Source: Escherichia coli
GTDB lineage: Bacteria > Pseudomonadota > Gammaproteobacteria > Enterobacterales > Enterobacteriaceae
Length of the DNA: 209 bases
Strand: one strand, 5' to 3'
Assembly (NCBI RefSeq): GCF_003334315.1
Contig: NZ_QOWR01000144.1
Made by a program: the position numbers and the translations under genes. Of this stretch, positions 1-209 are shown piece by piece. A model generated the notes under the pieces. That model saw nothing but the letters and a program-made list of their open reading frames with translations. It made no database searches and was not told the DNA's origin. The stretch's first letter is position 1, and the number at the start of each line of letters is the position of its first letter.

Positions 1-209
1 AATGGCAGTCACGCATCCAGTTAATAAAGCACTCGTGAAATTTTGCAGGACTGATACAGGATACAACTCTGGCAATGATATCGTGAACAGGAATACCATT
101 TTCAAAATCACCATATCACTTCAAAACATCGGGATGTGTTTCCCCAAAATCCTCTATATCTTCCCAACCTTCTGCACCAGAAATAACGGCACAAATAGTC
201 AACAGTAGA
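1..209 (-). pseudogene. ISAs1-family transposase (H-repeat-associated protein family), internal N-terminal-region fragment, interrupted by an in-frame TGA; partial at both window edges
   Basis: Seen in sequence: minus-strand translation in the frame of + coordinates 2..208 gives [30 protein letters not shown] (+ 119..208), then TGA (+ 116..118), then [38 protein letters not shown] (+ 2..115). Established knowledge, recalled from memory and not searched: E. coli H-repeat-associated proteins such as YhhI carry an N-terminal stretch of roughly ...[69 protein letters not shown].... That leaves only about 3 substitutions plus the stop over 68 codons. No start or natural stop of the gene lies in the window. 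Confidence 0.72.
1..209 (-). mobile_element. Internal fragment of an ISAs1-family insertion sequence (H-repeat element); element ends and inverted repeats lie outside the window
   Basis: Inference from the transposase homology above. ISAs1-family elements are about 1.2-1.4 kb with a single transposase ORF, so a 209-bp window inside the ORF cannot show the termini. The 40% GC (84 of 209 bases) fits a horizontally acquired element if the host is an enterobacterium, but the host is unknown. Confidence 0.6.
116..118 (-). other. In-frame premature stop codon (TGA) within the transposase reading frame
   Basis: Seen in sequence: + strand 116..118 is tca, which reads TGA on the minus strand, in the same frame as the conserved peptide on both sides. 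From memory, intact homologues have a sense codon here (Gln, or possibly Arg; a CGA to TGA change would be a single transition). Confidence 0.7.

Follow-up and report, generated by a model that had tools for sequence, protein, structure and literature searches.

The closest known counterparts among H-repeat (ISEc1, ISAs1 family) transposase genes are those of Escherichia coli K-12, where YhhI (b3484) and YdcC (b1460) are intact 378-aa ORFs attached to RhsB and RhsE. The gene analysed here, entered through a 209-nucleotide stretch of E. coli DNA (the window), resembles that of K-12 YhhI in its rhsB-yhhH-...-yhhI-yhhJ locus, its length of 1137 nt, its 1291-bp repeat unit and its CAGGG... ends, but differs from it by having TGA instead of CAA at codon 60, in addition to P55, V57 and I73. 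A nonsense codon within an otherwise full-length 1137-nt ORF that is annotated as a pseudogene is also found in the paralogous K-12 H-repeat ybfL (b0705), although in ybfL the affected position is codon 18 rather than codon 60 and the change from CAA to TAA involves a single base.

Two further groups of genes invite comparison. In the -1 frameshifting systems of IS3 and IS1, as here, the N-terminal DNA-binding part and the catalytic part are split by a translational barrier, and an IS3 copy annotated with a 'programmed frameshift' was present in one of the surveyed loci (L015). In contrast to IS3 and IS1, however, both parts of the present gene lie in one frame with a stop between them, rather than in two overlapping frames joined at a slippery site. 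Most family members lack the barrier (Gln in 104 of 116), and decay follows it in many of the TGA copies; it is a mutation and not a family trait. The E. coli selenoprotein genes fdhF, fdnG and fdoG carry an in-frame UGA accompanied by a SECIS hairpin. Like them, the present gene has a UGA within an E. coli reading frame, but it shows neither a SECIS match nor significant structure, and its homologues have Gln, not Cys, at this position. Our analysis confirmed that the stop codon is real and that it is an ordinary mutation which inactivates an E. coli transposase gene of the H-repeat (ISAs1/ISEc1) type.

Identity of the interrupted gene

A megablast search with the 209-mer against 5,426 complete E. 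coli genomes returned matches in 5,214 of them at 90–100% identity, with a median of five copies per genome. The best 30 matches were all 100% identical to the window, each lying in a gene labelled 'yhhI: ISAs1 family transposase', and the identical yhhI copies came from no fewer than 30 complete chromosomes, those of ATCC 8739 and E2865 among them. At the loci of ATCC 8739 (L001) and E2865 (L002) rhsB-yhhH lies on one side of the gene and yhhJ-rbbA on the other, and PGAP annotated the gene in both strains as a pseudogene with an 'internal stop'. The T found in the window at codon position 43.3 is that of the yhhI/RhsB version. The window covers codons 30–98 of yhhI, the H-repeat transposase gene adjoining rhsB, and its features are as follows (window coordinates).

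2..115, minus strand: codons 61–98, frame kept; 37/38 residues identical to K-12 YhhI
14..16, minus strand: Met94 ATG, the first in-frame start past the stop, heading a 285-aa ORF (L001 4194–5051)
77..79, minus strand: codon 73 ATC (Ile), ACC/ACT (Thr) in relatives; part of the longer TGA haplotype, yet separable from it
116..118, minus strand: in-frame TGA, codon 60 of yhhI (H-repeat, ISEc1/ISAs1 transposase); CAA in sense relatives
119..208, minus strand: codons 30–59, the end of the 59-aa N-terminal fragment, within DDE_Tnp_1_assoc (translation and Pfam)
125..127, minus strand: codon 57 GTT (Val), TTT (Phe) in all sense relatives; strictly linked to TGA-60 (one decayed exception is described below)

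A sequence-only reading of the window had placed a premature in-frame TGA at positions 116–118 and had assigned the transposase to the ISAs1 family, among the YhhI, YdcC and YbfD proteins, and on both points it was borne out. The plus-strand 'tca' at 116–118 is TGA on the minus strand, where translation of window positions 1–208 runs in one frame throughout with this single stop, the remaining two minus-strand frames being broken. In the full gene of ATCC 8739 (L001 3915–5051), which has 379 codons in 1137 nt and a conceptual protein of 378 aa, the TGA is codon 60 and the sole internal stop. The conceptual translation, searched with X at residue 60, scored 409.1 bits against the NCBIfam ISAs1 transposase model NF033564 (cut-off 70) and covered 314/314 model positions.

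The same reading had described transposase similarity on both sides of the stop in the absence of a frameshift. This was found to be correct, as 28/30 residues upstream and 37/38 downstream were identical to K-12 YhhI with no indels, so that the flanking similarity is not a product of chance. Truncation, previously estimated at roughly 60 residues, occurs after exactly 59, and the anticipated loss of the DDE domain follows from the position of the stop inside DDE_Tnp_1_assoc (Pfam PF13808; residues 8–94, E = 2e-31) and ahead of the catalytic domain DDE_Tnp_1 (PF01609; residues 102–343, E = 5e-30). The 285-aa ORF headed by Met94 includes the entire DDE domain without the N-terminal domain. An active copy is recognised by an uninterrupted transposase ORF, which here is broken by the TGA at codon 60; the copy is a member of the ISAs1/H-repeat family by descent, but a defective one. 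A PDB sequence search with the window peptide yielded chance matches only (all with E of at least 0.09).

Comparison with sense relatives

K-12 yhhI (L003 6379–7515) has the same length as the interrupted gene and is 98.1% identical to it at the DNA level, with no indels, 21 differing codons and CAA (Gln) at codon 60. All five K-12 H-repeat copies (yhhI, ydcC, ybfL, ybfD and ybfQ) possess CAA at this codon, as do copies from E. albertii and Escherichia sp. MOD1-EC7003 recovered in a scan of species representatives, with the exception of one E. albertii copy that has CAC. Position 60 in 116 protein cluster representatives was occupied by Gln in 104, Glu in three, Leu in three, Lys in two and Val, Arg, Thr and Trp in one each, while Cys occurred in none of the 116. 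The residue aligned to the stop in ISAs1 relatives, which had been proposed as a check on the sequence-only reading, is Gln (CAA). The stop thus replaces a conserved Gln by a change of two adjacent bases (CAA to TGA); where a point nonsense mutation had been suggested, its nonsense character stands but a single-base origin does not.

Differences from K-12 yhhI within codons 1–120 number four, all of them non-synonymous and clustered at codons 55–73 (window 77–133, minus strand), where the window allele has P55 versus Leu, V57 versus Phe, the stop at codon 60 versus Gln and I73 versus Thr. From codon 121 onward the differences are mostly synonymous, with a block of them across codons 121–225. 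An informal inspection by eye for a quasi-repeat or template behind the clustered G...TG changes gave no convincing candidate.

Frequency and spread of the TGA allele

An exact 36-mer spanning the TGA was found in 1,053 of the 5,426 complete genomes, at 1,249 places that were all chromosomal. The frequency of the TGA-60 allele is therefore 19% of sequenced E. coli genomes, or about one in five. Labels in a 60-row spread of these matches were ydcC (37), yhhI (7), 'transposase family protein' (4) and unnamed ISAs1/ISEc1 (12). The TGA was located at the RhsE-linked ydcC locus adjoining pptA in strain W and in O157:H7, at other Rhs loci in S42 and CFS3313, and in ybfL-type and ybfQ-type copies on metagenome contigs (six metagenome matches). 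A comparison with other copies of the element had been recommended alongside the earlier reading; several paralogous loci share the TGA, and an uninterrupted copy is present in E2865.

Among the copies examined, codon 57 was GTT in all those from E. coli genomes that had TGA-60, and TTT in every sense copy. The six metagenome matches also all had GTT57, for which they had been chosen. The exception to this linkage was a decayed copy (L032/L033) combining ATT57 with TGA60. An intact ancestral haplotype with GTT57 and CAA60 was found in 0 of the 5,426 genomes and in none of the six metagenome matches. Codon 73 can be separated from the stop, as four TGA-60 copies (L010, L012, L013 and L016) have Thr73. 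Variable-site tables showed locus-specific flanks around a shared GTT57...TGA60 block, for example at codon 19 (A or G), at codon 43 (T or C) and at the ybfL-specific sites of codons 13–43, and the downstream extent of the shared haplotype differed between TGA copies. These mosaic backgrounds indicate that the block, which is present in at least four paralogous H-repeat loci, was passed from one paralogue to another through gene conversion or recombination and did not arise by independent mutation. TGA-60 is, on these comparisons, a common and seemingly old allele and not a lesion private to the window's copy.

Other substitutions at codon 60 were much rarer. TAA was present in 7 of the 5,426 genomes on three different TTT57 backgrounds, as listed here.

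L028 1330–2466, L029 1330–2466 and L030 1330–2314: TAA-60 copies; backgrounds K-12-like yhhI, K-12-like ydcC and a decayed galF-linked copy

The K-12-like yhhI copy with TAA-60 is one base from K-12, and CGA-60 was found in a single genome, again with TTT57. TAA-60 and CGA-60, each one step from CAA and from TGA, occur only on TTT57 backgrounds, and either of the two bases may have changed first. As controls, a nonsense variant TAA-273 occurred in one genome and TGA-311 in two, indicating that TAA-60 is only slightly commoner than the sporadic nonsense background. Nonsense mutations of a sporadic kind are common in H-repeats, the TAA-18 of K-12 ybfL being another example, and TGA-60 stands out among them by its frequency only.

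The allele is already known, in that RefSeq flags the pseudogene and both halves have database entries. Public databases list the 59-aa peptide for at least 999 contigs, under the names 'transposase family protein' and 'H repeat-containing Rhs element protein', and the 285-aa Met94 product for 349 contigs, under 'H repeat-associated protein'.

Decay and constraint in TGA copies

About ten full-length TGA copies were compared, of which five (ATCC 8739, E2865, W, CFS3313 and L011) had no second lesion. Among the remainder, the O157:H7 PV15-279 and FORC_044 copies contained an expanded 8-bp AGCAGAAC repeat together with 1-nt indels, the S42 copy a 1-nt insertion, the L008 copy a 312-nt deletion with two indels, and a ybfL-type metagenome copy (L012) both TGA-60 and the ybfL stop at codon 18. 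The L032/L033 copy was heavily mutated, with dN/dS values of 0.26–0.6 relative to the TGA allele followed by a frameshift. Further lesions in about half of the TGA copies examined fit decay.

In the ydcC pseudogene of PV15-279 (L005 5651–5699) the AGCAGAAC unit forms a perfect 8-bp tandem repeat of 6.1 copies, a 40-nt insertion, and at the same site in FORC_044 (L014), near codon 270 of the gene, the insertion is 24 nt; the repeat is absent from the ATCC 8739 locus. This array looks like a variable-number tandem repeat inside a dead gene.

The dN/dS values of the window allele against intact K-12 copies were 0.13–0.17, compared with 0.19 for an intact paralogue pair, but these ratios cannot reveal constraint after the stop because most of the divergence predates it or was imported from intact copies. 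Several observations count against a neutral pseudogene. Five of the TGA copies are free of a second lesion, and the dN/dS of the window allele is no higher than that of the intact pair. The window's copy thus has no detectable decay beyond the stop, which is expected if the stop is recent in comparison to the divergence or if gene conversion refreshes the copies, and this copy may also retain residual function. A frequency of 19% at several loci is, in addition, high for a purely neutral null allele.

Recoding and readthrough

Translation in E. coli follows table 11, and UGA is read as selenocysteine only beside a SECIS element. An Rfam search of the window at E<=10 detected no SECIS and returned only three chance snoRNA matches. 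The downstream fold, calculated over 76 nt from 6 nt upstream of the UGA, had an energy of -17.1 kcal/mol (z = -1.5), which is not significant as 15 of 200 shuffles folded equally well, and CAA alleles hold the same hairpin bases. In K-12 reporters, UGA readthrough by tRNA-Trp was approximately 2% at 37 °C and 4% at 25 °C (PMC10570021). Unprogrammed readthrough at such levels may produce a trickle of full-length Q60W protein, and nothing marks the site as programmed.

One metagenome protein (P0128) with Trp at position 60 was considered as a possible case of sense decoding and rejected. Its contigs (L032 526–1110; L033 99–683) carry the decayed H-repeat with ATT57, TGA60 and ATC73, where TGA is a stop under table 11. 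Since the DNA has TGA and table 11 gives no such translation, the 'W' is a gene-calling product of a non-standard code.

The H-repeat element and its mobility

Homology between loci is bounded at L001 3771–5061, which delimits a repeat unit of 1291 bp. This unit is the H-repeat known from Rhs loci, also called H-rpt or ISEc1 and belonging to the ISAs1 family. The ends of the element are intact and consist of imperfect terminal inverted repeats, CAGGGAAAGATCA and CAGGGCAAGATTA, that match at 11/13 positions; they were located through the homology boundaries between loci, as a generic inverted-repeat search did not report them. By eye, no matching direct repeat that could represent a target-site duplication was seen in the flanks of five loci (L001, L004, L006, L015 and L034), but this is weak evidence, as old insertions that recombination has reshuffled would be expected to lack one.

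It had been suggested that the copy is probably immobile unless complemented in trans, which is plausible. Complementation is formally possible on account of the intact element ends and of E2865, a strain with a 100% window match, in which a different Rhs locus carries an ISEc1 transposase gene that is not interrupted. Transposition of H-repeats has reportedly never been observed (PMC3032704), which makes the question of complementation moot.

Interpretation of the TGA allele

The TGA is very probably a common null allele of the yhhI H-repeat transposase gene, an old one that has spread between paralogues and acts as a neutral pseudogenising change. Gln60 (CAA) has become TGA, and standard E. 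coli translation ends after 59 residues and before the DDE domain. According to this interpretation the lesion would be old and heritable and would have been passed on vertically, and the GTT57...TGA60 block would have been copied among paralogous H-repeats by gene conversion or recombination. TGA-60 would then behave as a neutral mutation in an element that has never been seen transposing, with UGA presumably read by tRNA-Trp in a few percent of ribosomes at most, the ordinary unprogrammed level.

The alternative with the most in its favour, though we consider it improbable, is that selection keeps a split or leaky gene, either because the UGA attenuates expression, with Q60W readthrough, or because the 59-aa product, the 285-aa product or both have been domesticated or serve in regulation. 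The presence of the allele in 19% of genomes and at least four loci, the intact state of both sub-ORFs in many strains, the UGA readthrough of K-12 reporters (~2% at 37 °C, ~4% at 25 °C; PMC10570021) and a dN/dS that is not raised would all be compatible with such a role. The low dN/dS, however, is confounded by gene conversion from intact copies, many TGA copies have acquired extra downstream frameshifts or deletions with one lineage badly decayed, and a non-leaky TAA arose at codon 60 in other copies. The 59-aa peptide moreover ends in mid-domain, and there is no in-frame start before Met94, so that the whole N-terminal domain is deleted from the downstream product. A stronger form of this idea, which we regard as a long shot, is that TGA-60 is favoured and not neutral, making the H-repeat transposase gene self-attenuating through a leaky UGA and/or the 59-aa and 285-aa products. 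If true, it would account for how TGA-60 came to be copied to four or more paralogous loci and to reach about 19% of E. coli genomes, and the two products would act on Rhs-linked H-repeats.

It is very unlikely that the real gene is instead the 68-aa ORF on the plus strand (2–208), to which the transposase similarity would be secondary. The window does match this ORF to within one base at either end, but the ORF is the codon-aligned antisense frame of a conserved transposase gene. Such a frame meets stops only opposite TTA, CTA or TCA and can be expected to stay open over long distances. A collection of 15 billion proteins has no exact copy of the 68-aa protein, and RefSeq records of the locus do not annotate it. 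Stop-codon recoding, raised in the sequence-only reading as an alternative, would require UGA to be read as selenocysteine or, under an alternative code (such as table 4 or 25), as Trp. This reading is extremely unlikely and in effect refuted. Trp at position 60 of P0128 and a weak hairpin that can be drawn downstream of the stop could be cited for it, but the former is a TGA that was read with a non-standard table in a decayed copy, and the latter has a fold z of -1.5 and bases also found in CAA alleles. The host is E. coli, a table-11 organism, the window being 100% identical to E. coli chromosomes; apart from the chance matches given above, Rfam gave nothing at E<=10, SECIS included, and the homologues have Gln and never Cys. 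The other alternative that had been raised, an error of sequencing or assembly, has nothing beyond its prior probability to recommend it and is refuted by recurrence in independent assemblies, given the identical 209-mer in at least 30 complete chromosomes from independent projects, the TGA 36-mer in 1,053 of 5,426 complete E. coli genomes and on six metagenome contigs, and the 59-aa product on at least 999 contigs.

For a neutral null allele of this kind the general significance is small, as it is an ordinary annotated pseudogene; mildly notable is that one null allele has spread among paralogues and reached around a fifth of strains. As a true allele and not an error, it indicates that annotation pipelines are right to keep the pseudogene call. 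The shared stop also illustrates how gene conversion may homogenise even null alleles among Rhs-linked H-repeats. TGA-60 could be used as a lineage marker, with the exact window sequence representing the yhhI/RhsB version. A false 'Trp' may result from TGA-60 where a metagenome gene caller changes genetic code, which calls for caution with homology-based recoding calls.

Other open reading frames and minor observations

The 68-aa antisense ORF is ATG-initiated and occupies window positions 2–208 on the plus strand (L001 4002–4208, minus strand), the window reaching one base beyond it at either end; the ORF is probably a side effect of the sense frame. Another ATG, one base past the TGA (window 112–114, minus strand onward; L001 4096–4398, plus strand), opens a 100-aa ORF in a different frame, which is unlinked to the stop because the same ATG is found in CAA alleles.

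A terminator-like hairpin, TTGGGGAAACACATCCCGA, with a T-rich tail is situated just upstream of the stop (window 129–147, minus strand; L001 4063–4081, plus strand). Its tail reads TTTTTT in CAA alleles, a T run that is broken in the TGA haplotype by the T-to-G change at codon 57. In a promoter and terminator scan, counts equalled shuffle expectation, and the overall number of terminator-like sites was not above it.

Short contigs from species-representative metagenome-assembled genomes labelled Candidatus Nanosynbacter, Streptococcus and Bacillota (L020, L021 and L027) contained an H-repeat with 97–99% identity to that of K-12, which is most likely mis-binned E. coli DNA.
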